Positions 3,898-28,925 of a DNA stretch of 64,000 nt are shown one piece after another. The position numbers and the translations under genes are program-made. Origin of the DNA: Escherichia phage vB_EcoS_ESCO30; sequence record NC_106513.1, one strand, 5' to 3'. The notes beneath the pieces are model-generated. The model did not search any database and was not told the DNA's origin. It worked only from the letters and a program-made list of their open reading frames with translations. Numbering within the stretch: the first letter of the stretch is position 1; every line of letters starts with the position of its first letter.

Positions 3898-4425
3898 ATG
3901 GGTAAATATAAACATATTGATTATGAGACTGTTAATAAATACTTTTATTATGATGAATCATCGCCATCATTTCTAAGGTGGAAAGTAACGCGAGGAAATA
4001 AAAAGGCCGGTGATATTGCCGGATGTATTAATAACGATGGTTACTATACCGTAGGTTATGATTACGGTGTTTACAGTGTGCATCGTATCATATGGGTATT
4101 ATTTCATGGTGAAATAGATAGCGCCTTATTAATTGATCATATAGATAATAACCGGCTAAATAATAACATTAAAAACTTACGTTTAGTTGATCATATGCAG
4201 AATAATAATAATCGTGTTAATAGTAAGCGTGATAATGATTTACCTCGTTTTATTTATCGTAGTAGTAATGGCAAGCGTGATAGTAACGGACGTGATTATT
4301 TGCTGGCTCAAATTAGGATTCCTAATAGTAAGCGGCGCATTAGTAAGTCTGGTTATGATTTACCTACGTTACTAGATTGGGTGATCAAAAAATGTGCAGA
4401 GCATGGCATTCAGTATAATATTTAA
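3898..4425 (+). CDS. HNH homing endonuclease (175 aa)
   Basis: N-terminal YYDESSPSFLRWK and HRIIW motifs, DHIDNN...NLRLV HNH-type core; very AT-rich. Confidence 0.7.
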   Translation: MGKYKHIDYETVNKYFYYDESSPSFLRWKVTRGNKKAGDIAGCINNDGYYTVGYDYGVYSVHRIIWVLFHGEIDSALLIDHIDNNRLNNNIKNLRLVDHMQNNNNRVNSKRDNDLPRFIYRSSNGKRDSNGRDYLLAQIRIPNSKRRISKSGYDLPTLLDWVIKKCAEHGIQYNI

Positions 4426-4885: not shown

Positions 4886-5164
4886 ATCTTAAAGCCTATC
4901 GGCGGTAAACTTATATATTATAAGGAATCGCAGATATGAAACAAACGCTTTTAATAACTGGTAAACCAGCTAAAAAATTGGATGGCAATACTAAAAAATT
5001 GTTGACAATAGCCCAGCAATCCGTAAAATACCGATTTGCGCAGTACAAGAAAGGCCGCCAGCAAGGTCTGGAAATGATCTGGCGCAATATTATGATCGAC
5101 CTGAAGGAAAATCATAAAAAACTGCAAAAAATAGTTTGACTTCCTAGCCGATAGGCTTTAAGAT
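4886..5164. repeat. Perfect 18-bp inverted repeat pair ATCTTAAAGCCTATCGGC (4886-4903) and its reverse complement (5147-5164) flanking ORF 4936-5139
   Basis: Read directly; right copy overlaps a TTGACT-17-TAAGAT promoter-like element. Confidence 0.7.
4936..5139 (+). CDS. Small basic protein (67 aa), flanked by the 18-bp inverted repeats
   Basis: ATG with AAGGA SD-like; Lys/Arg-rich. Confidence 0.4.
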   Translation: MKQTLLITGKPAKKLDGNTKKLLTIAQQSVKYRFAQYKKGRQQGLEMIWRNIMIDLKENHKKLQKIV

Positions 5165-5367
5165 GTACCCAGTTCGATAAGAGTGATAACTTGATAAAAT
5201 TTGACGGTCGGCACTTACCATAATGTGTCCCGCCCCCTAACTGGGATATAGCGGCCTGCGAGGAGTTCTTTAAATTGATTATAATGGCGAGTGGATTTTT
5301 TCTTATTATCTGCTACTTTCTAGCAGATAATGCGGAACAATCCGCTTAATAAACTGGAGTTTATACC

Positions 5368-5619
5368 ATGAAAAACGTTATTACCACGCCTAAAATTGGT
5401 CAATCCGTTTTCATTCCTTTCGTTACTAAAACGGACGAATTAACCGGAAAGGCCGAACGCATTAAAGGTGCGGCGCTTATGCCGTTTGATGTAATTGATG
5501 CGGTATACGCTGAAACGGAACGGAGTAACAACGGAAAAACTGTTTACAACGTTCGCGTTAAATCCGGCGACGTTGTAAAGGTTGCCCAGCGTAACGAAAA
5601 ATGGGAAGCTGTAGCGTAA
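5368..5619 (+). CDS. Hypothetical protein (83 aa)
   Basis: ATG with CTGGAG SD-like; followed by a hairpin at about 5631-5660. Confidence 0.5.
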   Translation: MKNVITTPKIGQSVFIPFVTKTDELTGKAERIKGAALMPFDVIDAVYAETERSNNGKTVYNVRVKSGDVVKVAQRNEKWEAVA

Positions 5620-5715
5620 TAGTGTTACTTTTATATGCCCCAGTAGTTCGGGGCATATAACGATTAACATTATGTTAATCTTATCCCTTAAATTAAATTA
5701 ACAGGAGCTATAATC

Positions 5716-6123
5716 ATGACTAACGTTAAAACCGCAAAATTTGCATGGAATGAAGAAAACACCCAAAAAGCTGTTTCTATGTATCAGCAATTAATCAACG
5801 AAAACGGTTTAGATTTCGCAAATAGCGACGGTTTAAAAGAGATTGCAAAAGCAGTGGGCGCGGCTTCTCCCGTGTCTGTTCGCTCAAAATTGACCAGCGC
5901 GAAAGCGTATCAGAAAAGCGATAAGCCTCGTAAAGTTGGCGGCGGTAGTTCTATCCGCAAAGCGCATTATGTGCGCGTTATTGCAAAACATGCGATCGAT
6001 TCCGGCATTATCAAAGACGCCGACGATCTGGCATCACTGGAAAGTGCAAAATTGGAAACGCTGGACGCCGTGGCGCAACTATTGGGCGTTGCCGATGAAG
6101 TAAAACAGGCCGCAGGCGAATAA
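5716..6123 (+). CDS. Putative HTH DNA-binding protein (135 aa)
   Basis: Motif EIAKAVGAASPVSVRSKLTSAK resembles the HTH module repeated in ORF 52460-53227. Confidence 0.5.
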   Translation: MTNVKTAKFAWNEENTQKAVSMYQQLINENGLDFANSDGLKEIAKAVGAASPVSVRSKLTSAKAYQKSDKPRKVGGGSSIRKAHYVRVIAKHAIDSGIIKDADDLASLESAKLETLDAVAQLLGVADEVKQAAGE

Positions 6124-6180
6124 ATTTAAATAGCGGGGAATATTCCCCGCTATAATTTCCCTTTGACTGGAGTTATTAAA

Positions 6181-6378
6181 ATGATCTTTTACCCCACTGA
6201 ATCACTAATTTTGGGCTTGTTTATTATGGCGGCCTCGTTATTGTTCGCATACTTCCAAAATGATCTGGATTCGTATTATTTTAAGCGCAAATCTAAGTTA
6301 GCGAAGCGGTTAGGCTTACTTTGTTTAATCGCCGCCGTTGTTTGCGGTGTTAGTTCTAGCCTGATGCCGATTAGTTAA
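6181..6378 (+). CDS. Small membrane protein (about 65 aa)
   Basis: Internal ATG at 6181 with CTGGAG SD; two hydrophobic segments. Confidence 0.4.
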   Translation: MIFYPTESLILGLFIMAASLLFAYFQNDLDSYYFKRKSKLAKRLGLLCLIAAVVCGVSSSLMPIS

Positions 6379-6475
6379 ATATTGCAAATTATAACGCCTA
6401 TTATTCAAGGCGTTATATCTGGCAATATTTGCCAATAACAAACGTTTTTTAATCCCTTTAACGGAGTTTATTACT

Positions 6476-8143
6476 ATGGTTATTTCCGCAGAAAAACAAT
6501 CCCAGATCATTAAACTTGCCGCTGATTTCAATTTCTATGGTAAACGTCTGCGCGCTACTAAACTGGAGGTCTGCGACGATATTTCAAAAGCGGTTTACGA
6601 TACTGCAAAATATTCCACCGCTATCTGCGACTGGTTGGAAGCAAATAAACCAGCGAAACCAAAAGCGGCGAAAGTAGCAAAAGCCATAAAAAACGACGAG
6701 CGCCCCGAAGCGGCTGGGATTGTTTCTAGTACCGTGGAACAGTGGGAAGTAAAACAAGGTAAACGCTTTATTATTACATCGATTCAGAATAATACTTTTC
6801 CTCATAAAAACTTTTTAGCCGCGCTTGAACAATATGCCCAATTTATCGGTGCTGATTTGCTGGTTAGCAAGTATATTTATAATAAAAACGGATTCCAAAA
6901 TGGTGAGGGCGCGGACGGAATCAAATATGATTCTGCGTTTGATAAATATATCTGCAATAAAAACGTGTTTTTGAATAATCGCCGTTTTGCTTTCATGGCT
7001 GAGATTAACGTGTTACCAACTGCAGATTATCCGCTGTCTGGATTCGCAGAAACTGCAACGGCTTTAAATATTGAAGGTCTGGCAATTGGTCACGCTAAAA
7101 TCACCGCCGAAAGCGTGCCAGCTTTAAAAGGTGAAGTAGTGCGCCGTATGTACTCAACCGGAACGGCGACGTTAAAAAACTACATTCAGCAGAAAGCAGG
7201 ACAAAAGGCCGAAGCGCTGCATAATTTCGGCGCGTTGATTGTCGAGTTCGATGAGGACGGTGAGTTTTTTGTTCGCCAGCTTGAAACAATGGATGAAAGC
7301 GGCATGTTTTATGATCTGAATGTTTGCGCTACTCCCGCCGGATGTTTTGAAACGTCCGATCATGTTTTAGGCTTGCAATATGGCGACATACACGCCGAAA
7401 AATTGGATGACGCTTGCGCCGTTGCGTCATGGGCTGGCGAAAATAGCTTGCTTGATATTCTCAAGCCTAAATATCAGTTTATCCATGACGTTCACGATTT
7501 TACATCGCGCAACCATCACAACCGCGCTTCTGGTGTATTCCTAGCAAAACAGTATGCCGCCGGACGTGATAAAGTTCTGGATGATCTCATCGATACCGGA
7601 CGCGTGCTGGAGTCAATGGAACGTGATTTTAGTCAAACAATCATTGTTGAATCAAACCACGATCTGGCGCTATCCCGTTGGCTGGATGATCGTAATGCTA
7701 ACATTAAAGACGACCCAGCAAACGCGGAACTATATCACCGCCTTAATGCTGCAATTTACGCGGCAATCGGTGATCATGACGATACTTTCAACGTGCTAGA
7801 TTATGCGTTGCGCAAGGTTGCAGGTTGTGAGTTTAATGCCATTTTCCTAACGACTGATCAATCTTTCAAGATTGCAGGCATTGAATGCGGCGTACACGGT
7901 CACAATGGCATAAACGGGAGCCGTGGCAATCCGAAGCAATTTAAGAAATTGGGCAAATTAAACACGGGGCACACTCATACCGCCAGTATTTACGGCGGCG
8001 TTTATACTGCTGGCGTGTCTGGTAGTCTGGACATGGGTTACAACGTTGGCGCGTCAAGCTGGACGCAAACGCATGTTATTACCTATGCAACCGGTCAGCG
8101 TACTCTGATCGACTTTAAGAATGGTAAATTTTTTGTACAGTAA
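6476..8143 (+). CDS. A1: A1-like pre-early protein, calcineurin/Mre11-type metallophosphatase nuclease (555 aa)
   Basis: Metallophosphoesterase motifs GDIHAE, ESNHD, GHTHT; size and position match my memory of T5 A1 (about 556 aa). Confidence 0.7.
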   Translation: MVISAEKQSQIIKLAADFNFYGKRLRATKLEVCDDISKAVYDTAKYSTAICDWLEANKPAKPKAAKVAKAIKNDERPEAAGIVSSTVEQWEVKQGKRFIITSIQNNTFPHKNFLAALEQYAQFIGADLLVSKYIYNKNGFQNGEGADGIKYDSAFDKYICNKNVFLNNRRFAFMAEINVLPTADYPLSGFAETATALNIEGLAIGHAKITAESVPALKGEVVRRMYSTGTATLKNYIQQKAGQKAEALHNFGALIVEFDEDGEFFVRQLETMDESGMFYDLNVCATPAGCFETSDHVLGLQYGDIHAEKLDDACAVASWAGENSLLDILKPKYQFIHDVHDFTSRNHHNRASGVFLAKQYAAGRDKVLDDLIDTGRVLESMERDFSQTIIVESNHDLALSRWLDDRNANIKDDPANAELYHRLNAAIYAAIGDHDDTFNVLDYALRKVAGCEFNAIFLTTDQSFKIAGIECGVHGHNGINGSRGNPKQFKKLGKLNTGHTHTASIYGGVYTAGVSGSLDMGYNVGASSWTQTHVITYATGQRTLIDFKNGKFFVQ

Positions 8144-8213
8144 GCCAATAAATTAAAACCTTATTTGCCTAAATCCTCCAATTAATGAGATAATATTAAT
8201 TGGAGGAATATAA

Positions 8214-8723
8214 ATGGCAAAAGAAATAGATTTTAATGAAGTTAACGAGAATGTTTATTATGATGAATCTAGCCCATCATTTTTACGATGGAAAATAAGT
8301 AAGCCCGGTGTAAAAGCGGGAAGTGTAGCGGGAACATTAAATCAGACAGGCTATTATGATGTAATGATTAACGGTGAATTATATAAAGCTCATCGTTTAA
8401 TTTGGGTTTTATTTAATAAAGAAATTAACCCTGATTTAGATATAGATCATAAAGTAATTTCTTACCCCGTTAACAACGATATAAATAATTTACGCCTAGT
8501 TACTCATGCGGTTAATATGACAAATAAGAGTGATTATAAAAGGCGTAATAAACTACCGAAATATATTTATCTTGATAAAGTTGATCCCATAGCGGGAGAA
8601 TATTACAGGGCAAAAATTAAAAACCCTATAACAAATAAATATGTTTCAAAAGGCAATTATGATTTATCTATTCTTTTAGAATGGGTTAAATCAAAGTGTA
8701 AAGAATTTAATATCCCTTATTAA
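8214..8723 (+). CDS. HNH homing endonuclease (169 aa), paralog of 3898-4425
   Basis: Shares YYDESSPSFLRWK, HRLIWVLF and NNLRLV motifs with 3898-4425; GGAGG SD. Confidence 0.7.
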   Translation: MAKEIDFNEVNENVYYDESSPSFLRWKISKPGVKAGSVAGTLNQTGYYDVMINGELYKAHRLIWVLFNKEINPDLDIDHKVISYPVNNDINNLRLVTHAVNMTNKSDYKRRNKLPKYIYLDKVDPIAGEYYRAKIKNPITNKYVSKGNYDLSILLEWVKSKCKEFNIPY

Positions 8724-8742
8724 ATTAATTGGAGTTATAAAC

Positions 8743-9138
8743 ATGGCTATTTCTAACCGTATTCCATTCGATCGCGCTCAATCCTCAATTGTTCTGGTTT
8801 ATTCTAATGGTGAACGTTACCACGTCGAGGCGGGGCACGTTATTGATGAGCTATTGGACTTTAACGACGGCTTGCAGGTTACTACCTTTGCATATACCAC
8901 GGGCAAACTATCAAGCCGCATCAAGGCGAAAGGCGTTTATATTGACACGGTGAAACAAGAAACGATTATCATCGACGCCGTAAAATCCGGCCTTGCCTTT
9001 GCAGTTGTCGCGCCTTGCCCCGCTTGCCTTGATGATCAATTGATCAGCGCAAAAGTATATACTTGTGCGGGGATTCGTTCCAGCGTATCAGGTGAGGATG
9101 TTAGTTTTATCGCTGATGCGTTAGCATATGGCCTTTGA
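8743..9138 (+). CDS. Hypothetical pre-early protein (131 aa), possible A2 equivalent
   Basis: ATG with TGGAG SD; follows A1-like gene; assignment by position only. Confidence 0.5.
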   Translation: MAISNRIPFDRAQSSIVLVYSNGERYHVEAGHVIDELLDFNDGLQVTTFAYTTGKLSSRIKAKGVYIDTVKQETIIIDAVKSGLAFAVVAPCPACLDDQLISAKVYTCAGIRSSVSGEDVSFIADALAYGL

Positions 9139-9218
9139 TAGTTGATTTATTATTGCCCGCTGATAAATAGCGGGCAATGCTGAATTAATCTAATCCCTTA
9201 AATGGAGAACGTAACAAA

Positions 9219-9953
9219 ATGAATCAAGTTAAAATGAATATTACCCGTAATTTCCCGCATATTTCCCGCGTCATGATTTGGGATCTGGACGGCACTATCA
9301 TTAATTCGTTTCATCGTGTAGCGCCTTGCTTTGATAGCGAGGGCAATTTAGATTTAAATAAGTATAAAAATGAAGCCTGCAAACATGATTTAATAATGCA
9401 AGATACACTATTGCCCCTTGTTACATATATGCGCCAGTGCATGAATGACGCAAATACTTTAAACATTATTTGCACCGCTCGACTAATGAGCAAGTCGGAC
9501 TATTATTATTTGCGTAAACAAGGGTTGCGCGGTCGTGGTGATAGTAATATCCGCGTGTTTTCCCGCGATACACTACACAAATATTTTGAGGCTGATAAAG
9601 TTAGCGAGATATACCACAGCAAAGACGCAGTTTATAAAAGTTACTATTTTGGGTTATTCAAACAATTATATCCGAACGCTGATTTTACGATGATTGATGA
9701 TCATAAAGGCGTGCTATCAGCGGCGGCATCATACGGATTTAAAACGCTGGACGCGCAAGCCGTTAACGATATTCTATCAATCGGTGTCACATTGATAGGT
9801 GAAACCTTTATTGATGAATCTCTTGAGGATGATAATGATTATCAGTTCCTAGCCGACCGCCTGCAATTATGTTGGGAAGGTATGACCGAGGAGGAACGCG
9901 CGGAATATAGTTGCAGCCCGCAACAATATATTGAGAAATTAAAAGTTGCGTAA
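9219..9953 (+). CDS. dmp: HAD-family 5'-deoxyribonucleotidase (Dmp-like, 244 aa)
   Basis: N-terminal HAD motif MIWDLDGTIINS (DxDGT); pre-early position as in T5. Confidence 0.65.
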   Translation: MNQVKMNITRNFPHISRVMIWDLDGTIINSFHRVAPCFDSEGNLDLNKYKNEACKHDLIMQDTLLPLVTYMRQCMNDANTLNIICTARLMSKSDYYYLRKQGLRGRGDSNIRVFSRDTLHKYFEADKVSEIYHSKDAVYKSYYFGLFKQLYPNADFTMIDDHKGVLSAAASYGFKTLDAQAVNDILSIGVTLIGETFIDESLEDDNDYQFLADRLQLCWEGMTEEERAEYSCSPQQYIEKLKVA

Positions 9954-9970
9954 TAATTAAAGTTGAAATT

Positions 9971-10007
9971 GTTTCACCCTGCAATTAAAATGGTTGCAGG
10001 GTGAAAC
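9971..10007. terminator. Strong 14-bp-stem hairpin GTTTCACCCTGCAA...TTGCAGGGTGAAAC between convergent genes
   Basis: Perfect inverted repeat read directly; lies between dmp (+) and the minus-strand peptide operon. Confidence 0.6.
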
Positions 10008-10117
10008 AGTTAGCATGGTAATAGTAACGGGGGTGGCGGTTAGCAGACTAAGTATTTTCGCCGGAGGCAGTGAGCACACCTTCATGTGTAATCTTATGAA
10101 ATTTCGAGATTTCCCAA

Positions 10118-10363
10118 TTAGCGCATAGAATGGTCGTCAAACCTGTGTTCTGGTCTGAACTCACGGAATCTCTTCCGCGACGCCCGAGATCCATCCGACC
10201 ACTCCCGCTCAAACTCCGCACGTTTCTCGTCAAACTTCCGCTCCCTTTCCGCAATCTCCCGCGATACTTCCGCAGTATACTTACGATGCTTGTTAATAGC
10301 CGCAGTCATTCCGAAAACTCCCGCGAGTACCCCGATAATAAAAGCAACTATAATACTAAACAT
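10118..10363 (-). CDS. Small single-pass membrane protein with charged C-terminal tail (81 aa)
   Basis: N-terminal hydrophobic helix MFSIIVAFIIGVLAGVFG; GAGAGGG SD; last gene of the coupled array. Confidence 0.5.
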   Translation of the reverse strand: MFSIIVAFIIGVLAGVFGMTAAINKHRKYTAEVSREIAERERKFDEKRAEFEREWSDGSRASRKRFREFRPEHRFDDHSMR

Positions 10364-10547
10364 CTAATTCCCTCTCAATTTGCAGAATACGGGTGCTATC
10401 ACAACGTTGCAGTAGTACTAGCTTTTCTAGAATAACTTGTTGTTGTTTCACCTGAGCCTCTAGAGTTTTTAGGCGGAGATACACGATACGAGAGACAATG
10501 AGGATTACCCAGACTAATATTACTATTAGTGTAACTGTCACTTCCAT
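10356..10547 (-). CDS. Small membrane peptide (63 aa), member of tandem family
   Basis: MEVTVTLIVILVWVILIV TM segment; start overlaps upstream stop (TAATG). Confidence 0.5.
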   Translation of the reverse strand: MEVTVTLIVILVWVILIVSRIVYLRLKTLEAQVKQQQVILEKLVLLQRCDSTRILQIERELDV

Positions 10548-10654
10548 TATTTACGTTTCTCCGATAGTAAGGTTTCGATTCTAGCTAAGTGATTATCTAA
10601 GATACATTGCCCAATAATCACAATCCCCAGTAGTGCAATAATTACCCATTCCAT
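10547..10654 (-). CDS. Small membrane peptide (35 aa, MEWVIIALLGIVIIGQCILDNHLARIETLLSEKRK)
   Basis: Hand-translated; TAATG coupling at both ends; paralog of 10654-10809. Confidence 0.4.
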   Translation of the reverse strand: MEWVIIALLGIVIIGQCILDNHLARIETLLSEKRK

Positions 10655-10809
10655 TATTTACGATCCTCTAATAAAGTTTCAATTCTAGATAATCTATTGC
10701 TCAACTGCATTAATTTAATTTCTGTTTGGGTTACAGAGGTATCTATTACACGTAAGCCTACAAAGAGAAGTACCAATAAGACGAATATGCCAATAATTAC
10801 CCATTCCAT
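10654..10809 (-). CDS. Small membrane peptide (51 aa, MEWVIIGIFVLLVLLFVGL...RIETLLEDRK)
   Basis: Internal ATG of track ORF 10654-10839; shares MEWVII start and RIETLL C-terminal motif with neighbour. Confidence 0.5.
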   Translation of the reverse strand: MEWVIIGIFVLLVLLFVGLRVIDTSVTQTEIKLMQLSNRLSRIETLLEDRK

Positions 10810-10937
10810 TAGATCCACCCCGCCATAGCTGCTAACCAAAAACCTACGAAGATTAGGAATAATACAAAACCAAATCCGTAAATGTTAACCCACGCTTCGT
10901 ACACTTCTCCGCGTCTGTTCTTTCTTTTGTTTGACAT
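10809..10937 (-). CDS. Small peptide (42 aa) with basic N-terminus and hydrophobic C-terminus
   Basis: Hand-translated (MSNKRKNRRGEVYEAWVNIYGFGFVLFLIFVGFWLAAMAGWI); stop overlaps next start. Confidence 0.35.
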   Translation of the reverse strand: MSNKRKNRRGEVYEAWVNIYGFGFVLFLIFVGFWLAAMAGWI

Positions 10938-11114
10938 ATCTTTCGTGCCCCCGTAAATGCGGTATTTTAAAATATTTTATAATTTGTGCATAACCAACCA
11001 TGCTCGTGACTTCCTAGAAGGGCTTCTCATTTTCTTGCATAGTGTTTTATGCCAGTACACCATCCAAGAAATAAAAAATTTAGTTTACTTGGATGTCTTT
11101 TTGTTTTATACTAA

Positions 11115-11381
11115 TTACAAGTAATTAGATTGTTCTAGTTTAAATTTACAATCACCATATTTAAGGTCAAACTGACTGAGATCCCACCATCCAAACTTAG
11201 TACGGAGCTGTACTACTGGAAAGCGATCTCCCTTAATACGAACTTTTTGAACCTTGAGACCGTAATGTTCTTCTCCCGCACCACCAAAAGATTTTACAAA
11301 TCCCGTGCAAAATGGTTTGGGAGCAGGTGCACAACCAGATAACATAACTGCGGCAACTAGTGCAATCACAAACTTTTTCAT
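11115..11381 (-). CDS. llp: Llp-like lytic-conversion lipoprotein (88 aa precursor)
   Basis: Signal peptide with lipobox LSGC; divergent from adjacent receptor-binding protein gene; own early-type promoter. Confidence 0.6.
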   Translation of the reverse strand: MKKFVIALVAAVMLSGCAPAPKPFCTGFVKSFGGAGEEHYGLKVQKVRIKGDRFPVVQLRTKFGWWDLSQFDLKYGDCKFKLEQSNYL

Positions 11382-11412
11382 ATTTATCTCTCCATTTCTA
11401 ATTTATGAATCT

Positions 11413-11441
11413 ATTATAGCAAAATAGAGGGATGAAAGCAA
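11413..11441 (-). promoter_or_regulatory. Sigma70 promoter TTGCTT-17-TATAAT upstream of llp
   Basis: Reverse complement of 11436-11441 gives -35 TTGCTT, of 11413-11418 gives -10 TATAAT, 17-nt spacer. Confidence 0.65.
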
Positions 11442-11466
11442 ATACATTTTTATAATAGGAGATTAT

Positions 11467-13254
11467 ATGGGTTTTTTCGCTGGAAAATATAGTGATGGTA
11501 AAACTGTATTATCGCTAAACAAAGTGAATGGTGGGGATATTAATGCCCACAAAACTCCTAATGCCAATACTATATTTCACTCTGATATGCCATTTGTTCT
11601 AGTTGAGAGTACTTATGAAAGTGCATTAAGTAGCGCTGGGAATGGTTTCTACGTATGCCAGATGCCTTCTGTGATAGCTAACCTAAAGAGTAATGATCCT
11701 GGTAGGGTTATACTAACCGCTGTTGAGATAAATGGTACGCATAGAGCTTTTCTTAATGGTACTCAATCCCAGGTTGGACAATTTCTTGCATTTTTTGAAG
11801 ATCCCCCTATTGGTAGGGCGGGTGCTGAATTAGGTCTTACGTCAGCTTTTGCATCTGGTAACAGTTTAGCACATGGTACTTATACTTATAACTCTAGTCT
11901 AGGACATGAAGAGTCAATAGCTAGACAAGGTACTGGTGGTACTATATCACAGGCTTCTGGGTTTAACTTATACAGACCTGGCGGGGCATATGCCGGTGAA
12001 GCCATAGGTAGAGCGTGGACTTTAGCAGGATTTCCAGCCGGAGCATCTAAAGTATCAATAAATAGTGGTAATGTTGACTTCTGGCACCCTAATTGGCAGG
12101 CTCCTATAGGGGCGGGAAAAAGAGGTCATAATTGGTTTTATGTTTGTAACTCCAATATACGTGGATATGCTGGTAAAAAGGGTACTACGCCAAGTAATGT
12201 TAGTGTATTATATAATTCTTCAACCTATCCAGATAAGGTTTATGTATGTAGAGGCTCGACATCTAATTTAGCATCACAGGCAGCAAAGAAGAAGTATGTT
12301 CAAGATAGTTATAATATTACTCCGACCAAGGTTATTTGGTATGTGCTGAATCTTAGATACTCTAACGGTGGTATGAGCGTTGCTAGTAATCCTTTTACTG
12401 GGTCTGATATTCGTATAAGCCCCTCTAACTTTACTATAAAAGGTGTTAGTCTTCCAAATACTAGTTACAAATTCATTAATCAGAATGCCTTTGGTAACTT
12501 ATCATCTAGACCTGATATGGAGTACATTGGTAATAACGTTGCTTATACCGGAGTCTTTGGAGACACTACAGCAAGATGCGAAATTGTAGGTTCTAATAAA
12601 GGCTCTTTATGGTCCCCTGTAAGTTACGGAGGTTCTAAGTCTCAGATAAGTATTTACAAATTCTCTGCTGGTAAACAATGGTATGTTAATTCCAATAATA
12701 ATACTATAGGTAATGAGCATGGGGTTGTTTGGGGACCTTCTTCAGTACCGTTACGATTACTACCAAATAACGTAGCTAGTACTTACATAGGTGATGACAT
12801 AAACCCTTCTTATCCAGGTACAGGGAATAAGTACGTAGCCCTATCTACAGTAGGTCTTGGATTACCTAATGCAAACTCTACAGTAATTCTAACTACTGAA
12901 GTAGTTGCCGGAAATCTTAATACAGCAGGAGGTCCTATACGAACATATGGTGGTACTGCGTGGCAGGTGCAAGGTAGAAGACAACAAAGTTATACCGGTG
13001 GTGATGGGGTATTCCATCAAATATTAACTTTACCCCCTAATCAGTTGGTGCCCTTCCATACTACAGCTTCTTATAGCTATACACAGCAGTGGGCTAGTCG
13101 ACCTGATGATTTAACATTTACTAGAAGTGGATTTATTTACACTATTAAAAATCTGGGTAACGGTAATGCTGAGTTAGGTGTAGTTATACATGCAAATGAA
13201 TCCGCTGCAGTTTTCTTACCGAGATTACGAGTAACAGTTCAACGCCTTACCTAA
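11467..13254 (+). CDS. Putative receptor-binding tail protein (pb5/Oad-like, 595 aa)
   Basis: Gly/Ser/Asn/Thr/Tyr-rich; sits divergently beside llp as in T5; no catalytic motif seen. Confidence 0.55.
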
Positions 13255-18694: not shown

Positions 18695-20071
18695 ATGACT
18701 ATTGATATTAATAAGCTGAAAGAAGAACTTGGTCTGGGTGATCTGGCTAAATCTCTGGAAGGTCTGACCGCTGCTCAGAAAGCTGCTGAAGCTGAACGTA
18801 TGCGTAAAGAGCAGGAAGAAAAAGAACTGGCTCGTATGAATGACCTGGTTTCTAAAGCAGTTGGCGAAGATCGTCAGAAACTGGAACAAGCTCTGGAACT
18901 GGTTAAGTCTCTGGATGAAAAATCTAAGAAGAGCGCTGAACTGTTTGCACAGACTGTAGAAAAACAGCAGGAAACTATTGTTGGTCTTCAGGATGAAATT
19001 AAATCTCTGCTAGCAGCTCGTGAAGGTCGTTCCTTCGTTGGTGATAGCGTAGCTAAAGCACTGTACGGTACTCAGGAAGCTTTTGAAGATGAAGTTGAAA
19101 AACTAGTTCTTCTGTCTTATATGATGGAGAAGGACGTATTTGAAACTGAACATGGTAAAGCCCACGTTAAGGCTGTCAATGGTTCTTCTTCCGTTTCTAT
19201 GTCTAGCGAAGCATACGAAACTATCTTCTCCACTCGTATTATCCGTGACCTGCAGAAAGAATTAGTAGTTGGCGCACTGTTCGATGAACTGCCAATGTCC
19301 AGCAAAATTCTTACTATGCTCGTTGAACCAGAAGCTGGAAAAGCTACTTGGGTGGATGCTTCCAAATTCGGTACTGACGAAACTGTTGGTGACGAAGTTA
19401 AAGGTACTCTGACTGAAATCAGCTTCAAAACTTACAAGCTGGCTGCTAAGTCCTTCATCACTGATGAAACTGAAGAAGATGCAATCTTCTCCCTACTGCC
19501 TCTGCTGCGTAAGCGTCTGATCGAAGCACATGCCGTTTCTATCGAAGAAGCGTTTATGACTGGTAATGGTACTGGTCAGCCGAAAGGTCTGTTGACTCTG
19601 GCTAGTGAAGATAGTGCTAAAGTTACCACTGAAGCTAAAGCTGATGGTTCTGTACTAGTAACTGCTAAAACCATTTCTAAACTGCGTCGTAAACTGGGCC
19701 GTCATGGTCTAAAACTGAGCAAACTGGTACTGATCGTATCTATGGATGCTTATTACGATCTGCTGGAAGATGAAGAATGGCAGGATGTTGCACAGGTTGG
19801 TAACGATGCTGTTAAACTGCAAGGTCAGGTTGGTCGTATTTATGGTCTGCCGGTTGTAGTTTCTGAGTACTTCCCAGCTAAAGCAGCAGATAAAGAGTTC
19901 GCAGTTATTGTTTATAAAGATAACTTCGTAATGCCGCGTCAGCGTGCTGTTACTGTTGAACGTGAGCGCCAAGCTGGTAAACAGCGTGACGCGTACTACG
20001 TTACTCAGCGTGTTAACCTGCAACGTTACTTTGCAAATGGTGTTGTATCCGGTGCTTACGCTACCGCTTAA
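18695..20071 (+). CDS. Major capsid protein precursor with N-terminal scaffold-like coiled coil (458 aa)
   Basis: Charged coiled-coil N-terminus then HK97-like core; strongly biased codon usage; terminator follows. Confidence 0.8.
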   Translation: MTIDINKLKEELGLGDLAKSLEGLTAAQKAAEAERMRKEQEEKELARMNDLVSKAVGEDRQKLEQALELVKSLDEKSKKSAELFAQTVEKQQETIVGLQDEIKSLLAAREGRSFVGDSVAKALYGTQEAFEDEVEKLVLLSYMMEKDVFETEHGKAHVKAVNGSSSVSMSSEAYETIFSTRIIRDLQKELVVGALFDELPMSSKILTMLVEPEAGKATWVDASKFGTDETVGDEVKGTLTEISFKTYKLAAKSFITDETEEDAIFSLLPLLRKRLIEAHAVSIEEAFMTGNGTGQPKGLLTLASEDSAKVTTEAKADGSVLVTAKTISKLRRKLGRHGLKLSKLVLIVSMDAYYDLLEDEEWQDVAQVGNDAVKLQGQVGRIYGLPVVVSEYFPAKAADKEFAVIVYKDNFVMPRQRAVTVERERQAGKQRDAYYVTQRVNLQRYFANGVVSGAYATA

Positions 20072-20091
20072 TACAGGCTTTTCAGCCGATA

Positions 20092-20116
20092 AGGAGAGCT
20101 TCGGCTCTCCTTTTTT
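20092..20116 (+). terminator. Rho-independent terminator GGAGAGCTTCGGCTCTCC + T-run
   Basis: Perfect 7-bp GC stem, 4-nt loop, TTTTTT. Confidence 0.7.
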
Positions 20117-20130
20117 ATTGGGAAAAATAA

Positions 20131-20643
20131 ATGCAAATCATCACAGCCGAAGATTATAGATTATATGGTGGTTTAAAACGACCTGAATTAGAGTCTGGTG
20201 TAGAAATGATGATTACTGCTGCCAATGCGCTGATTACGAGCCTTCTAGGCATGGATGATGCTGATGCGGTAGACCAGTTAATCAATACAAAACCTACACG
20301 TAGGAAATATTTTCTGAGCTCACCTTCTGCTACCTCCGTAACTAAAGTGACGATTAACGATAATGAGATTGATCCAGAGCAGTATAAGCTATACTCTGAT
20401 GGTGTTATCCTCCTAAAGTTTAATCCTCCAGAAGGTTATATGGATGTAGCATATACACAAGGTGGATTTAACCCAGTGCCTGAAGATCTCAAACTTGCAG
20501 CGTGTATGCTAGTAGATCATTGGCATAAACAAGATTATCGCCAAGCTAAAACAATTGGTGGTGAAACAGTAACCTTCAACAGCACTAAGTCTGGTATTCC
20601 AGAGCATATTCGTACTATTATTGAAGTATATAGGAGAGTATAA
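20131..20643 (+). CDS. Head completion/connector protein (170 aa)
   Basis: Position after capsid gene; preceded by TATTGGGAAAAATAA motif instead of a classical SD. Confidence 0.45.
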   Translation: MQIITAEDYRLYGGLKRPELESGVEMMITAANALITSLLGMDDADAVDQLINTKPTRRKYFLSSPSATSVTKVTINDNEIDPEQYKLYSDGVILLKFNPPEGYMDVAYTQGGFNPVPEDLKLAACMLVDHWHKQDYRQAKTIGGETVTFNSTKSGIPEHIRTIIEVYRRV

Positions 20644-21410
20644 TGTCTCTTTCCGATCTAGCTAAACAAATTATTAAAGAGCAGCTAGATACTGCAGGAC
20701 GATCTGAAAATAATAAGAATACTGTTGTGTACTCTGTTGAGACAGGGTTAAAAGATCCTACCAGAGATGGTACTATTGCTCAAGTATCTTTTAAGTTTTC
20801 AAAACCCGTATCACAAGATCTTCTTGATGTTAGAACAGCCTCCATACTAAAAGCTGTATCCTCTAGTTTAGATCTTTCGGGAGATTTAGGTGCTCTAGAA
20901 AATCTTATACAGGCAACCGCAGGTAAAAAATCTGCTGTAGGTAAAAAACGTTCTACAGGCAGAGTAGAGGTAAACTTTGGAGATCCTAAAGACGTAGAGG
21001 ATGGATACTCAGGTGCAATAACAGGTGCTTCCGGACGTTTCGTGTCTAATAGCAATATGAAAGTTATACTAGAGATAGTTGCTAAAGAGTACTTAATAAA
21101 GGATATGAAAAAGACAGGAGCGCCATTAAAATTTAGAACCGGTCGCTTTGCAAATTCTCTAAAAATTAAAGATGTTATGCTTAGAGACGCAGAGACTAGT
21201 AAAGGTTCTCCTGAATTGAACGTAACATATAATTATATGACTCGTCCATATTCTGTGTTCAACCCCGCAGTATCTACATATAGAAGATTATCTCTACGAC
21301 CTTATCCTGGCGCTAGAAACCCACAAAAACTTATTGGTGAGGCTATAGCAAAAGCTGCAAGAGACCTGATTCACTCCAGATATAAAATTAAGGTTAATCA
21401 AGGAACCTAA
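20643..21410 (+). CDS. Putative neck/tail-attachment protein (255 aa)
   Basis: AGGAG SD, start coupled to upstream stop. Confidence 0.4.
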   Translation: MSLSDLAKQIIKEQLDTAGRSENNKNTVVYSVETGLKDPTRDGTIAQVSFKFSKPVSQDLLDVRTASILKAVSSSLDLSGDLGALENLIQATAGKKSAVGKKRSTGRVEVNFGDPKDVEDGYSGAITGASGRFVSNSNMKVILEIVAKEYLIKDMKKTGAPLKFRTGRFANSLKIKDVMLRDAETSKGSPELNVTYNYMTRPYSVFNPAVSTYRRLSLRPYPGARNPQKLIGEAIAKAARDLIHSRYKIKVNQGT

Positions 21411-21413
21411 TAA

Positions 21414-21899
21414 ATGGACCATAGAACAAGTATTGCACAAGCTATGGTTGACCGAATCTCTAAACAAATGGATGGTTCTCAACCTGACGAATATTTTAAT
21501 AACCTATACGGAAACGTTTCTCGTCAAACTTATAAATTTGAGGAAATACGAGAGTTTCCTTATGTGGCAGTTCATATCGGAACTGAAACTGGGCAGTATC
21601 TTCCTTCGGGCCAACAGTGGATGTTTTTAGAACTTCCAATCCTGGTGTACGATAAAGAGAAAACAGACATTCAAGAGCAACTTGAAAAACTCGTAGCGGA
21701 TATAAAAACCGTTATTGACACAGGTGGAAATTTAGAATATACTGTTAGTAAACCTAATGGATCGACCTTCCCATGTGAGGCAACTGATATGATCATTACA
21801 TCAGTTAGTACAGATGAGGGTCTACTGGCCCCATATGGTTTAGCAGAAATAAATGTAACAGTGAGGTATCAGCCTCCACGTAGGTCACTTCGCAGATAA
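21414..21899 (+). CDS. Putative tail completion protein (161 aa)
   Basis: Position and size only. Confidence 0.4.
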   Translation: MDHRTSIAQAMVDRISKQMDGSQPDEYFNNLYGNVSRQTYKFEEIREFPYVAVHIGTETGQYLPSGQQWMFLELPILVYDKEKTDIQEQLEKLVADIKTVIDTGGNLEYTVSKPNGSTFPCEATDMIITSVSTDEGLLAPYGLAEINVTVRYQPPRRSLRR

Positions 21900-21925
21900 G
21901 TTACAGATTAGGAGAAAATAATTAA

Positions 21926-23317
21926 ATGTCTTTACAACTATTACGTAATACTCGAATCTTCGTGTCTACGGTTAAGACTGGTCATAATAAGACCAACACG
22001 CAAGAGATTCTAGTTCAGGATGATATTTCTTGGGGTCAGGACAGTAACTCAACAGATATTACTGTTAATGAAGCTGGTCCGCGTCCAACTCGTGGTTCTA
22101 AACGTTTTAACGACTCTTTAAACGCAGCTGAGTGGAGTTTTTCTACTTACATCCTACCGTATAAAGATAAAACTACTAGCAAACAAATTGTTCCTGACTA
22201 TATGTTATGGCATGCACTTTCTAGTGGTAAAGCTATTAACTTAGAAGGTAATACAGGGGCACACAATAACACAACTAACTTCATGGTTAACTTCAAAGAT
22301 AACTCCTATCATGAGTTAGCAATGTTACATATTTATATTCTGACTGATAAAGCATGGAGTTATATTGATTCCTGTCAGATTAATCAGGCAGAGGTTAACG
22401 TTGATATCGAAGATATTGGCCGTGTAACTTGGTCTGGTAATGGTAATCAGCTTATTCCTCTGGATGAGCAACCATTTGATCCGGATGAAATAGGTATTGA
22501 TGATGAAACTTATATGACTATCCAGGGTTCTTATATTAAGAACAAACTAACGATCTTGAAGATCAAGGACATGGATACCAATAAGTCTTATGACATACCG
22601 ATTACCGGTGGTACTTTTACTATTAACAACAACATTACTTATTTAACACCTAATGTAATGTCCCGTGTTACTATTCCAATTGGTTCCTTTACCGGTGCTT
22701 TTGAATTAACTGGTTCATTAACTGCTTATCTGAATGATAAATCTCTTGGTTCTATGGAACTGTATAAAGATCTTATCAAAACTCTGAAGGTAGTTAACCG
22801 CTTCGAAATCGCTTTAGTACTTGGTGGCGAATACGATGATGAACGTCCTGCAGCTATTCTGGTAGCTAAACAAGCGCACGTTAATATTCCTACTATTGAA
22901 ACTGATGATGTACTTGGTACTTCAGTAGAGTTTAAAGCTATTCCATCTGATCTGGATGCTGGTGATGAGGGTTACTTAGGATTTTCTAGTAAATATACCA
23001 AAACAACTATTAATAACTTGATTGTTAATGGTGATGGTGCTACTGATGCTGTAACCGCAATTACTGTTAAATCTGCCGGTGATGCTACTTCTGTTCGGAC
23101 TGGACAAACTCTTCAGATGAGTGTTGAAGTTACTCCTTCTTCCGCAAGGAATAAGGATGTTACCTGGGCTATCACTGCCGGTGATGCAGCTACTATCAAT
23201 GCAACAGGACTATTAACAGCACATGCTAGTAAAACTGGTGCAGTAACTGTAGAAGCTACTGCTAAAGATGGTTCTGGAGTTAAAGGTACTAAACAGATTA
23301 CTGTAACAGGTGGTTAA
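21926..23317 (+). CDS. Major tail tube protein with C-terminal Ig-like (Big_2-type) domain (463 aa)
   Basis: C-terminal segment ITVKSAGDATSVRTGQTLQMSVEVTP...VTVEATAKDGSG typical of Big_2; position before chaperone and tape measure genes. Confidence 0.65.
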   Translation: MSLQLLRNTRIFVSTVKTGHNKTNTQEILVQDDISWGQDSNSTDITVNEAGPRPTRGSKRFNDSLNAAEWSFSTYILPYKDKTTSKQIVPDYMLWHALSSGKAINLEGNTGAHNNTTNFMVNFKDNSYHELAMLHIYILTDKAWSYIDSCQINQAEVNVDIEDIGRVTWSGNGNQLIPLDEQPFDPDEIGIDDETYMTIQGSYIKNKLTILKIKDMDTNKSYDIPITGGTFTINNNITYLTPNVMSRVTIPIGSFTGAFELTGSLTAYLNDKSLGSMELYKDLIKTLKVVNRFEIALVLGGEYDDERPAAILVAKQAHVNIPTIETDDVLGTSVEFKAIPSDLDAGDEGYLGFSSKYTKTTINNLIVNGDGATDAVTAITVKSAGDATSVRTGQTLQMSVEVTPSSARNKDVTWAITAGDAATINATGLLTAHASKTGAVTVEATAKDGSGVKGTKQITVTGG

Positions 23318-23321
23318 TTAA

Positions 23322-24218
23322 ATGTTTTATTCTCTCATGCGAGAGTCTAAAATAGTTATTGAGTACGATGGTAGGGGGTATCATTTCGATGCCCTCTCTA
23401 ATTATGATGCTAGTACGTCTTTTCAAGAGTTTAAGACTCTTAGACGTACTATCCATAATCGTACTAACTATGCAGACTCTATTATTAATGCTCAAGATCC
23501 TTCATCTATTTCATTGGCAATAAATTTCAGTACTACGCTTATTGAATCTAATTTCTTTGATTGGATGGGATTCACGCGTGAGGGAAATTCTTTATTTTTG
23601 CCAAGAAATACTCCCAATATTGAACCTATTATGTTCAATATGTATATTATTAATTATAATAATAGCTGTATTTATTTCGAAAACTGTTATGTATCAACAG
23701 TTGATTTTTCTCTAGATAAGAGTGTACCAATTCTAAATGTTGGTATTGAGTCTGGAAAATTCTCTGAAGTATCTACTTTCCGTGATGGATATACAATTAC
23801 ACAAGGTGAAGTACTTCCGTATAGTCCTCCAGCTGTGTATACTAATAGCGCGCCGCTGCCGGCATTAATTTCAGCATCTATGTCCTTCCAACAACAATGT
23901 TCTTGGAGAGAAGATAGAAGTATATTTGATATAAACAAAGTTTATACTAATAAACGAGCTTATGTCAATGAAATGAATGCTTCCGCAACACTAGCTTTCT
24001 ATTACGTTAAGAGATTGGTAGGAGATAAGTTCTTGAATCTAGACCCTGAAACAAGAACTCCACTAATTATTAAAAATAAGTATGTTTCTATAACATTCCC
24101 TTTAGCACGTATTTCAAAACGCCTAAACTTCTCAGATTTGTATCAGGTAGAGTATGATGTAATTCCTACTGCTGATTCAGATCCTGTAGAAATAAACTTC
24201 TTTGGAGAAAGAAAATAA
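23322..24218 (+). CDS. Hypothetical tail protein (298 aa)
   Basis: AGGTGG SD; late-operon context. Confidence 0.4.
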   Translation: MFYSLMRESKIVIEYDGRGYHFDALSNYDASTSFQEFKTLRRTIHNRTNYADSIINAQDPSSISLAINFSTTLIESNFFDWMGFTREGNSLFLPRNTPNIEPIMFNMYIINYNNSCIYFENCYVSTVDFSLDKSVPILNVGIESGKFSEVSTFRDGYTITQGEVLPYSPPAVYTNSAPLPALISASMSFQQQCSWREDRSIFDINKVYTNKRAYVNEMNASATLAFYYVKRLVGDKFLNLDPETRTPLIIKNKYVSITFPLARISKRLNFSDLYQVEYDVIPTADSDPVEINFFGERK

Positions 24219-24622
24219 TGATTAACTTAAAAGATATTACTCTAGAAACTCGTACTGTCACTCTTTCATACCCAGGTATGCCGAACTTTAAGCTAGAGCT
24301 TAATTATATGTCTCGTGCTACTTCTAAACGAGTTATCACCTCTGCTAAGCGTGACGAGTGGGTTAATGGTACTTTGATTCAGGTACAAGATGATGATAAG
24401 TTTATTGAAGCTTTCGTTGATGCTGCGATTAAAGGTTGGACTGGTTTGACTGTAGGTGACGTTGAAAAACTGATGCTGATCGAAACAGATGCTGATCCTG
24501 CTACTGAAGTTCCATTTAGTCGTGATAATGCTGTAATGCTTATGCAGAACTCTGCTGCGTTTGATTCTTGGATCAACCAGACAGTGTTCCACTTAGACAC
24601 TTTTCGTAGCTCAAAAGCGTAA
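24218..24622 (+). CDS. Putative tail assembly chaperone (134 aa)
   Basis: Canonical position between tail tube and tape measure genes. Confidence 0.45.
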   Translation: MINLKDITLETRTVTLSYPGMPNFKLELNYMSRATSKRVITSAKRDEWVNGTLIQVQDDDKFIEAFVDAAIKGWTGLTVGDVEKLMLIETDADPATEVPFSRDNAVMLMQNSAAFDSWINQTVFHLDTFRSSKA

Positions 24623-24683
24623 AGAATTACTAGATGCTGTTGCTGACTTTGCTGATAAGTGTATTAAAAGCTCAGCATCTAAA

Positions 24684-25052
24684 ATGACTAAACAACAATA
24701 TTTAATACTTTGTGAATCAATGGGTATAGAGCCTGATCCTAAGGCTATGCCTGTTGAACTTGAAGACTTTCCACCTATTGTAGCTATTAGTATGAATATT
24801 TATAATAGTCTAGTTGACTGTTTCATACCTGGTGACTTCCCTATTTTTATAGGTAAAGATAAAGCTGCTTTAGGTGTTTTATTTGATATTTATGGGATTA
24901 CTGATCCTATAGAGAAAGAATTTGTTCTACACATTATCAATATATTTGATGCTAAAGCTGTAGACGCTGCACGTAAACGTGCTGAGAAGCATAAGCCGCA
25001 AAATGGTAGAATACCTAACGTTAAGCCACATGCCAAATCTCGAGCACGGTAA
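24684..25052 (+). CDS. Putative chaperone extension ORF (122 aa; frame open from about 24597)
   Basis: No SD before the ATG; reading frame overlaps the end of the upstream ORF in the +1 frame. Confidence 0.4.
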   Translation: MTKQQYLILCESMGIEPDPKAMPVELEDFPPIVAISMNIYNSLVDCFIPGDFPIFIGKDKAALGVLFDIYGITDPIEKEFVLHIINIFDAKAVDAARKRAEKHKPQNGRIPNVKPHAKSRAR

Positions 25053-25087
25053 AAGTTTCCTCCAATGGGCGTTCCACGATGAGGCTT

Positions 25088-25118
25088 GGCTCTGGGTGAT
25101 TTGCCCAGAGCCTTTTTT
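25088..25118 (+). terminator. Rho-independent terminator GGCTCTGGG...CCCAGAGCC + T-run
   Basis: 9-bp stem followed by TTTTTT. Confidence 0.7.
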
Positions 25119-25135
25119 ATTGGGAAAAATAAAAT

Positions 25136-28816: not shown

Positions 28817-28822
28817 AACTGG

Positions 28823-28850
28823 AGGAGGACTTTGAGTCCTCCTTTTCTTT
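28823..28850 (+). terminator. Terminator hairpin GGAGGAC...GTCCTCC + T-rich run
   Basis: Stem-loop then TTTTCTTT just after the tape measure stop. Confidence 0.6.
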
Positions 28851-28925
28851 ATGGAAAAATAAAAATTTCTTGATAAAATTTTCTAATACTATTATAATAT
28901 TGTTATTAAAGAGGAGAAATTAACT

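Follow-up and report, generated by a model that had tools for sequence, protein, structure and literature searches.

Gene content and organization of the pre-early locus

The 64,000-nucleotide stretch of DNA that we analyzed (hereafter, the window) comes from ESCO30, a T5-like phage (Demerecviridae) with ~92% identity to the closest relatives that have been sequenced. The region of interest, at 6476–9953, is the distal part of a T5-like pre-early (first-step-transfer) operon into which an HNH gene has been inserted after A1 (Table 1). On the + strand the complete operon reads 007, A2, 005, A1, HNH, 002 and dmp, and the order annotated in T5 is 007-A2-005-A1-003-002-dmp. The placement of A1 between 005 and the 003/002/dmp segment agrees with the orders in T5, LVR16A, HdH2 and smaug.

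The original prediction of a pre-early host-takeover module was borne out, as an A1 orthologue, an orthologue of the HAD-type Dmp and an inserted HNH gene are all present and the four open reading frames from A1 to dmp lie where they had been called. Protein alignment with T5, which had been set beforehand as the test, gave 93.5% identity for A1 (over 526 aa) and 99.6% identity for Dmp (over 244/244 aa), decisively excluding an absence of similarity. Gene order and strand agree between the two phages throughout the region, protein identities are 92–99.6%, and T5 likewise has both intergenic hairpins (palindromes A and B), a terminator downstream of dmp and promoters located near hdi; at the DNA level, identity is only about 84–98% per gene. 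The start of gene 005 was placed at ATG 6181 in preference to TTG 6163 because the T5 alignment begins at residue 7 of the reading frame and because the leader motif described below (here at 6159–6183) ends on this ATG.

A scan for sigma-70-type promoters returned two sites that overlap the hdi orthologue (4936–5139), a 67-aa reading frame matching phrog_4718. The characterized T5 promoters P_H22 and P_D/E20 also overlap hdi, and based on this shared position the two sites are probably the promoters of the pre-early operon. The hairpin that follows dmp is probably a bidirectional terminator closing the operon, with a T5 terminator annotated at the equivalent place. Transcription of the operon would run along the + strand between these two points. 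The boundary of the terminal repeat, as transferred from T5 coordinates, maps to ~10076, ~65 nt beyond the hairpin.

Table 1. Features of the ESCO30 pre-early region (window coordinates).
Feature	Position	Strand	Evidence
Sigma-70-type promoter-like sites: TTGACA-16-TAAAAT, 5002–5029 (11/12); TTGACT-17-TAAGAT, 5136–5164 (9/12)	5002–5164	+	Consensus scan
Gene 007 orthologue, first gene of the operon, 83 aa, DUF7177	5368–5619	+	94% identity to T5 9.2-kDa protein; Pfam DUF7177 1.1e-42
A2, 135 aa, binds DNA and is essential for second-step transfer; outside the interval first noted	5716–6123	+	T5 annotation
Gene 005 orthologue, small membrane protein	6181–6378	+	92% identity to T5 65-aa protein; phrog_4820
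A1 orthologue, 555 aa, calcineurin-like metallophosphoesterase	6476–8143	+	
HNH leader, 14-bp hairpin burying SD GGAGGA; core 8174–8186/8195–8207	8160–8222	+	Perfect 13-nt inverted repeat
Free-standing HNH (HNH_3) homing-type endonuclease gene, 169 aa	8214–8723	+	Pfam HNH_3, phrog_99
Gene 002/ORF153 orthologue, 131 aa, function unknown	8743–9138	+	91.6% identity to T5 ORF153; phrog_4576
Intergenic hairpin between 002 and dmp (T5 "palindrome A")	9142–9188	+	Inverted repeat; -28.0 kcal/mol, z -5.7; T5 annotation
dmp orthologue, 244 aa, predicted HAD-superfamily 5'-deoxyribonucleotidase	9219–9953	+	Near-identity to T5 Dmp, motifs, fold
18-bp hairpin after dmp	9967–10011	.	Inverted repeat 94% complementary; -30.8 kcal/mol, z -6.8

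A1 is a probable metallophosphoesterase-type DNase

In addition to its similarity to T5 A1, the 555-aa product matches phrog_1745 ("DNA transfer protein"; E 1.9e-242) over residues 9–553. Searches against Pfam and NCBIfam profiles (at E 0.01 or 1) and against the PDB (phmmer) gave no match beyond noise, including none to Pfam Metallophos, and the kinship of A1 to the metallophosphoesterases is visible only in its motifs and fold. In an alignment of 64 sequences we located the metallophosphatase motifs DxH / GDxxD / GNH(D/E) / H / GHxH at D304/H306, H337-D338..D341, S393-N394-H395-D396, H474-G475(-H476) and G498-H499-x-H501, with every one either invariant or conserved at 90% or more. The protein has the beta-sandwich phosphoesterase fold, and its best structural matches include the DNA exo/endonucleases DP1, SbcD and Mre11. 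A1 differs from Mre11, SbcD and archaeal PolD DP1 in that sequence identity is only 13–17% and in having an additional N-terminal helical region and a conserved region at 90–290; the locus also carries no gene for a Rad50/SbcC partner.

A1 is probably the DNase that destroys host DNA, and as an enzyme of the Mre11/SbcD/PolD-DP1 type it would most likely cut the host chromosome directly by means of a two-metal center. In T5, A1 is needed for second-step DNA transfer as well as for degradation of host DNA. Alternatively, the DNase could be a host nuclease activated by A1, which would then be a phosphoesterase or a regulator acting primarily on DNA transfer and RNA polymerase. We consider this unlikely, since the metal-binding and catalytic motifs are all invariant across homologs at 41–93% identity, which argues that A1 is catalytic; moreover, DNA nucleases are among its closest structural matches and A1 alone degrades the E. 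coli chromosome. In vivo, A1 has been reported to be both necessary and sufficient for the degradation of host DNA (Annor et al., 2026, preprint). With the probable direct nuclease retained as our reading, the expectation of a protein of the T5 A1 type with metallophosphatase motifs holds, but its description as a "Mn-dependent nuclease" exceeds the evidence.

Dmp is a HAD-superfamily enzyme

The dmp product had been expected to be a 5'-deoxyribonucleotidase on account of a HAD DxDGT motif; the motif is present, and the product is nearly identical to the biochemically defined Dmp of T5. HAD motifs I–IV (D22-L-D24-G-T26, T86, K140 and D160-D161) are invariant in 42 sequences. As with A1, profile searches were uninformative: Pfam and NCBIfam (at E 0.01 or 1) and the PDB (phmmer) returned nothing beyond noise. 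Homologs of Dmp do carry precomputed matches to PF26880, a more recent Pfam family. The top 50 Foldseek matches in the PDB to the AF2 model of the protein (pLDDT 83.1) belonged without exception to the HAD superfamily (probability 1.00; best E 3.6e-4), among them the phosphatase of T4 PNKP and the human cytosolic deoxyribonucleotidase. Dmp has the Rossmann-like HAD core and motifs I–IV in common with human cdN, AphA and the T4 PNKP domain (Foldseek probability 0.98–1.00), whereas its identity to these proteins is 10–19% and the TM-scores are modest, at 0.33–0.45. It also differs from its HAD relatives in having an acidic, helical C-terminal tail of ~55 residues, which is modeled at low confidence. 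The near-identity to T5 Dmp suggests that the ESCO30 protein is a dNMP phosphatase, which would strip the 5'-phosphate from dNMPs released out of host DNA, so that host DNA would exit the cell as nucleosides.

A2 lies upstream of A1 and the 131-aa reading frame is gene 002

The 131-aa reading frame between the HNH gene and dmp had been placed at the A2 position, and this assignment has to be withdrawn, as the product matches ORF153 of T5 and the true A2 gene is located upstream of A1. The A2 product is 99.3% identical to T5 A2 over 135/135 aa and matches phrog_1725 ("DNA binding protein", 4.3e-52); searches with it against Pfam and NCBIfam (E 0.01 or 1) and the PDB (phmmer) gave nothing beyond noise. 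That the 131-aa protein is nevertheless the equivalent of A2 is suggested by its similar size and by the position of its reading frame next to A1, but the two proteins belong to different PHROG families, blastp found no match between the 131-aa protein and T5 A2, and the T5 order puts A2 between 007 and 005 whereas this reading frame is downstream of A1. We therefore regard the equivalence as having virtually no chance of being correct.

As the orthologue of gene 002, the 131-aa reading frame would be a dispensable accessory gene; T5 from which gene 002 has been deleted is viable. Its product had no matches in Pfam or NCBIfam at E 0.01 or 1, and a weak PDB match to PARP1 zinc-finger-3 (E 0.06) was treated as chance. 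From the T5 literature, A1 and A2 would together let the remainder of the phage genome enter the cell.

The HNH gene is a sporadic insertion

The product of the HNH gene matches Pfam HNH_3 over residues 57–102 (26.7 bits, above the cut-off of 24.8) and phrog_99 at 9.3e-37, and the HNH residues read from the sequence are D78-H79, N92 and H98/N101. The original prediction had the gene between the A1-like and A2-position genes; it is real and is inserted there, but its downstream neighbor is gene 002. Comparison with an empty site allowed us to map the junctions of a cassette of ~570 bp, flanked by the final codons of A1 on one side and by the gene 002 leader on the other. In X5 the slot holds only a hairpin, and in T5 it holds gene 003 (92 aa, phrog_23906, function unknown), which is replaced here by the unrelated HNH gene. 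We also considered whether T5 gene 003 might be a remnant of the HNH gene and rejected this, as it shows no similarity and belongs to a family of its own.

Of 517 related records, 17 contain the gene; ~97% of related phages, T5 included, lack it. The tblastn results were bimodal, with these 17 records at 90% identity or above and all others below 60%. Across phages, DNA identity of the HNH gene is 98.4–99.2%, in contrast to 83.6–90.6% for A1, 73.7–86.7% for gene 002 and 85.2–92.8% for dmp. Shivani, LVR16A and smaug (Salmonella), HdH2 (Escherichia) and SHSML-45 (Shigella) carry the same cassette with the same junctions at 96–99% DNA identity, whereas their flanking genes are 8–26% different from those of ESCO30; the existing annotations of all five already name the insert between A1 and 002 as an HNH or homing endonuclease. 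These comparisons show the cassette to be a mobile element that has been spreading recently and whose junctions are defined, and the gene would represent a selfish, free-standing homing endonuclease outside the takeover machinery.

The leader of the HNH gene folds into a hairpin (MFE -22.9 kcal/mol, z -5.6) that none of 200 shuffled sequences equaled in stability. The promoter scan also found a promoter-like sequence, TTGCCT-18-GATAAT with an upstream TG (8165–8194, a 9/12 consensus match), inside the hairpin. In smaug the hairpin is kept with one G-U change, and an 11-nt duplication gives rise to a second, unpaired SD before the gene. No such hairpin was found at the ribosome-binding site of the second HNH gene of the window (3898–4425; z +1.6). 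The arrangement resembles that of T4-type homing genes (I-TevI, I-TevII, I-TevIII, segB and Aeh1 mobE), in which a consensus SD ~6–8 nt before the AUG is likewise buried in a stable hairpin and a promoter-like site is likewise placed so that its transcripts would omit the 5' arm, although the phage family and the host-RNAP promoter type differ from those of the ESCO30 gene. By analogy, the hairpin may control translation of the HNH gene in the T4 style.

Alternatively, the HNH gene could itself serve the takeover by encoding a pre-early nuclease that attacks host DNA together with A1; it does lie within the pre-early operon and is encoded on its strand. In further support, HegG, a related pre-early HNH protein of T5, is toxic and compacts the nucleoid, and the second HNH gene of the window, which occupies the hegG slot, is 47% identical to the inserted one. 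Expression of T5 HegG, however, causes no DNA degradation. In addition, the inserted gene is missing from nearly all related phages, is near-identical in divergent backgrounds, does not have the common leader of the operon and, with its SD buried in the hairpin, should not be translated from operon transcripts that read into it. We consider a takeover function improbable and favor the selfish cassette.

A leader motif shared by the pre-early genes

A distinctive TGGAGTT-type ribosome-binding context had been predicted for the pre-early genes. The exact heptamer occurs in the operon at 5355, 6168 and 8730, upstream of 007, 005 and 002; A1 is preceded by CGGAGTT and dmp by TGGAGAA, leaving 002 as the only gene named in that prediction to have it. 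The window contains 21 copies of TGGAGTT, most of them not at the start of a gene, and on both counts we rejected the heptamer as a distinctive signal, the prediction being only approximately right. A broader leader does exist, since the pattern CCCTT-N2-14-GGAG-N5-12-ATG has five matches in the 64-kb window, as compared with 0.57 expected, and all are at gene starts of the operon (A2, 005, A1, 002 and dmp), with a variant at 007.

We tentatively suggest, as a possibility that is less likely than not, that this leader, a GC-core hairpin followed by the pattern above, is a class-specific cis element of the pre-early operon that is kept across T5-like phages 10–25% different in DNA and that could be a shared signal for RNA processing or translational control, with the inserted HNH gene standing apart in having its own RBS-sequestering hairpin. 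The leader might, for instance, be what is targeted when pre-early protein synthesis is shut off in an A1-dependent manner, and the action of T4 RegB/RegA on early leaders would follow a comparable logic. Our literature search found no earlier description of a pre-early leader or Shine-Dalgarno sequence of this kind in T5, and it may nonetheless have been described.

Implications

Taken as a whole, we consider it very likely that the locus is a T5-like pre-early operon in which A1 is a probable direct nuclease, Dmp a HAD phosphatase, 002 an accessory gene and the HNH gene a selfish cassette. Orthology, motifs, folds, gene order and, for the HNH gene, sporadic distribution and excess identity were shown here, and what A1, A2 and Dmp do in vivo is drawn from the T5 literature; beyond these, we infer the direct nuclease chemistry of A1, its metal, homing by the HNH gene and hairpin control of its translation.

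The locus carries little weight as a discovery, being the textbook host-takeover operon of T5, already described for that phage, and carrying an HNH insertion that the annotations of about a dozen relatives already include. Two points are new, though minor: the conserved leader and the hairpin, T4-like in style, in which the ribosome-binding site of the HNH gene is buried. The placement of A2 is corrected to 5716–6123 from 8743–9138, and the folds of A1 and Dmp, which sequence profiles fail to recognize, independently support an Mre11/SbcD/DP1-like metallophosphoesterase in the one case and a HAD enzyme in the other.

Organization of the Pre-early Locus

Megablast of 5300-10200 against GenBank phages returned 517 records, nearly all of them T5-like Demerecviridae with ~83–91% identity. 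A 12-kb tail-gene segment (20000-32000) was at most ~92% identical to any record, with the Salmonella phages ABTNLsp9, PHB06, and GSP044 as best matches, and because of this ceiling we consider that the phage is probably a previously undescribed relative of T5 at roughly the level of species.

The original prediction of a pre-early module at 6476-9953 describes a real feature and is largely correct in its interpretation, as all four of its plus-strand ORFs were present in our ORF list with exactly the same limits (see table). Annotated T5 genes (AY587007) were translated and compared with the window ORFs, and these alignments supported the A1 and Dmp assignments. The 131-aa ORF that had been placed at the A2 position is instead gene 002, based on its match to T5 ORF153, not A2, and on the T5 gene order, which in the orientation of the window is 007-A2-005-A1-003-002-dmp and is the same in LVR16A, HdH2, and smaug. 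The true A2 is upstream of A1, outside the predicted interval. Gene 002 is dispensable in T5, and its orthologue was assigned to phrog_4576 (unknown function). The sole functional lead for this protein is a weak phmmer match (E 0.06) between residues 72–110 (8956-9072), around CPAC...C, and zinc finger 3 of PARP1; this match is probably due to chance.

The hdi orthologue (4936-5139) is overlapped by two promoter-like sites (5002-5029 and 5136-5164), an arrangement shared with the characterised T5 promoters, and dmp is followed by an 18-bp hairpin (9967-10011, −30.8 kcal/mol) where T5 has an annotated terminator. Downstream of dmp (9954-13254) are small minus-strand ORFs, then the llp and pb5-like genes. 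The T5 terminal-repeat boundary maps to ~10076, and since llp and the pb5-like gene are beyond it, the window copy is in a right-repeat or collapsed-repeat context and does not represent the left end, the first part to be injected.

Features of the pre-early locus and adjacent region
Feature	Position	Strand	Remarks
A2 orthologue	5716-6123		135 aa; 99.3% identity to T5 A2
A1 orthologue	6476-8143	+	555 aa; 93.5% identity to T5 A1
HNH endonuclease gene	8214-8723	+	169 aa
Gene 002 (ORF153) orthologue	8743-9138	+	131 aa; 91.6% identity to T5 ORF153
Dmp orthologue	9219-9953	+	244 aa; 99.6% identity to T5 Dmp
Leader regions	5631-5718, 6130-6183, 6377-6478, 8714-8745, 9142-9221		Hairpin and leader pattern
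llp (Llp-like lipoprotein gene)	11115-11381	-	
pb5-like receptor-binding protein gene	11467-13254		

A1 and Dmp

A1 was not recognized in Pfam, NCBIfam, or PDB sequence searches. The metallophosphatase motifs claimed for it were borne out by a 64-sequence alignment (41–93% identity), in which those of the calcineurin-like metallophosphoesterases were all invariant or nearly so (G303-D304-x-H306, H337-D338-x-x-D341, S393-N394-H395-D396, H474-G475-H476, and G498-H499-x-H501). The AlphaFold2 model was confident (pLDDT 90.8, pTM 0.82), and its Foldseek matches to the PDB were weak (best E 0.075), with metallophosphoesterases recurrent among them. These results agree with Annor et al., and we regard the label of Mn-dependent nuclease as reasonable but putative, rather than as established fact. 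Three observations support 6476, the long start, for A1: M1 is invariant, the N-terminal helices are confident, and a conserved leader ends on that ATG. The window has a Leu at the start of the shorter 527-aa form annotated in one T5 record. Helix-turn-helix Pfam domains (PF13384, PF04218, PF02796, PF13560) were found in the distant A1 homologs P0072, P0074, P0078, P0090, and P0097 (about 46% identity, ~87% query coverage), which suggests that the N-terminus of A1 is an exchangeable DNA-binding module.

The HAD DxDGT motif predicted for Dmp is present as D22-L-D24-G-T26, and motifs II (T86), III (K140), and IV (D160-D161) are likewise invariant among 42 homologs. The Dmp model (pLDDT 83.1) matched only HAD proteins in the PDB (probability ~1.0), including the T4 PNKP phosphatase domain, AphA, and human cytosolic deoxyribonucleotidase. 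Because the protein is nearly identical to the T5 enzyme, whose function is to convert dNMPs from host DNA to nucleosides that are then excreted, that function can, judging from sequence, be carried over. T5 Dmp is non-essential and increases virulence.

A Mobile HNH Cassette

The predicted HNH gene was confirmed by Pfam HNH_3 (26.7 bits; threshold 24.8) and a phrog_99 match; it does follow A1, as predicted, but its downstream neighbor is gene 002. Of the 517 related records, only 17 (from about 11 distinct phages) carry its DNA, without exception between A1 and gene 002, and by tblastn the family is bimodal, with 17 records at ≥90% identity and all remaining records at <60%. The HNH gene is 98.4–99.2% identical in DNA to those of LVR16A, HdH2, and smaug, versus 83.6–90.6% for A1, 73.7–86.7% for gene 002, and 85.2–92.8% for dmp, a disparity in DNA identity that bears the mark of recent lateral spread.

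The junctions were mapped by alignment to the empty site of phage X5, in which a 65-nt spacer with a hairpin separates A1 from gene 002. The cassette extends from the last A1 codons and stops immediately upstream of the conserved leader TATCCCTTATTAAATTAATTGGAGTT, part of which is contributed by the last HNH codons, and A1 ends in FVQ-stop in HNH-carrying phages versus FA-stop in HNH-free phages. T5 differs in having the unrelated gene 003 (phrog_23906), present in <15% of Demerecviridae, in the same slot. The HNH gene fits a putative free-standing homing endonuclease gene. A second HNH_3 gene (175 aa) is present at the T5 hegG slot (3898-4425); the two are 47% identical, and their similar N-terminal YYDESSPSFLRWK regions suggest that they are paralogous cassettes.

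The HNH Shine-Dalgarno sequence (SD) GGAGGA (8202-8207) is within a perfect 13–14-bp hairpin whose outer stem pairs codons right after the AUG. This leader (8160-8222) folds at −22.9 kcal/mol (z −5.6), which none of 200 shuffles equaled. The 5′ arm and loop contain a promoter-like site (8165-8194; TTGCCT, 18-nt spacer, TG-n-GATAAT) whose −10 is of the extended type, and transcripts from this putative promoter would begin inside the 3′ arm, leaving the SD free. Such hairpin and promoter regulation of the HNH gene would resemble the translational control of T4 I-TevI and segB and of mobE; the same layout is known for T4 I-TevI, I-TevII, I-TevIII, and segB and Aeh1 mobE (Edgell et al., 2010). Phage smaug has kept the hairpin with one A-to-G change (giving a G-U pair), but an 11-nt duplication (attggaggatt; record L004, 4355-4425) provides a second, unpaired SD that may let HNH escape sequestration. 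No comparable hairpin was found at the ribosome-binding site (RBS) of the second HNH gene.

A Conserved Leader of the Pre-early Genes

A TGGAGTT-type RBS had been proposed as distinctive of these genes. Within the operon, the exact heptamer is upstream of genes 007, 005, and 002, but A1 has CGGAGTT, dmp TGGAGAA, and A2 CAGGAGC, and its 21 occurrences in the window are mostly unconnected with gene starts. What the genes do share is a broader leader, CCCTT-N2-14-GGAG-N5-12-ATG, with five matches on both strands of the 64 kb versus 0.57 expected (no shuffle gave five). All five coincide with gene starts, namely those of A2, 005, A1, 002, and dmp, with none elsewhere in the window; the pattern scan found none at the HNH gene, and gene 007 has a CCGCTT variant where T5 has the motif unaltered. 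Six relatives (T5, LVR16A, HdH2, smaug, GSW6, and X5) have the sites at orthologous positions, and a stable GC-core hairpin (z between −4 and −6) precedes every one of them. Our literature search on T5 pre-early leaders found no prior description of this leader, which may be an element for RNA processing or translational control that is specific to this class of genes.

The corrections to the original prediction concern the location of A2, the strength of the Mn-dependent nuclease label, and the wording of the RBS motif. The biology of the locus is already known: it is the T5 pre-early operon, with a mobile HNH insertion that has been annotated before. The conserved pre-early leader and the hairpin at the HNH gene are minor leads.
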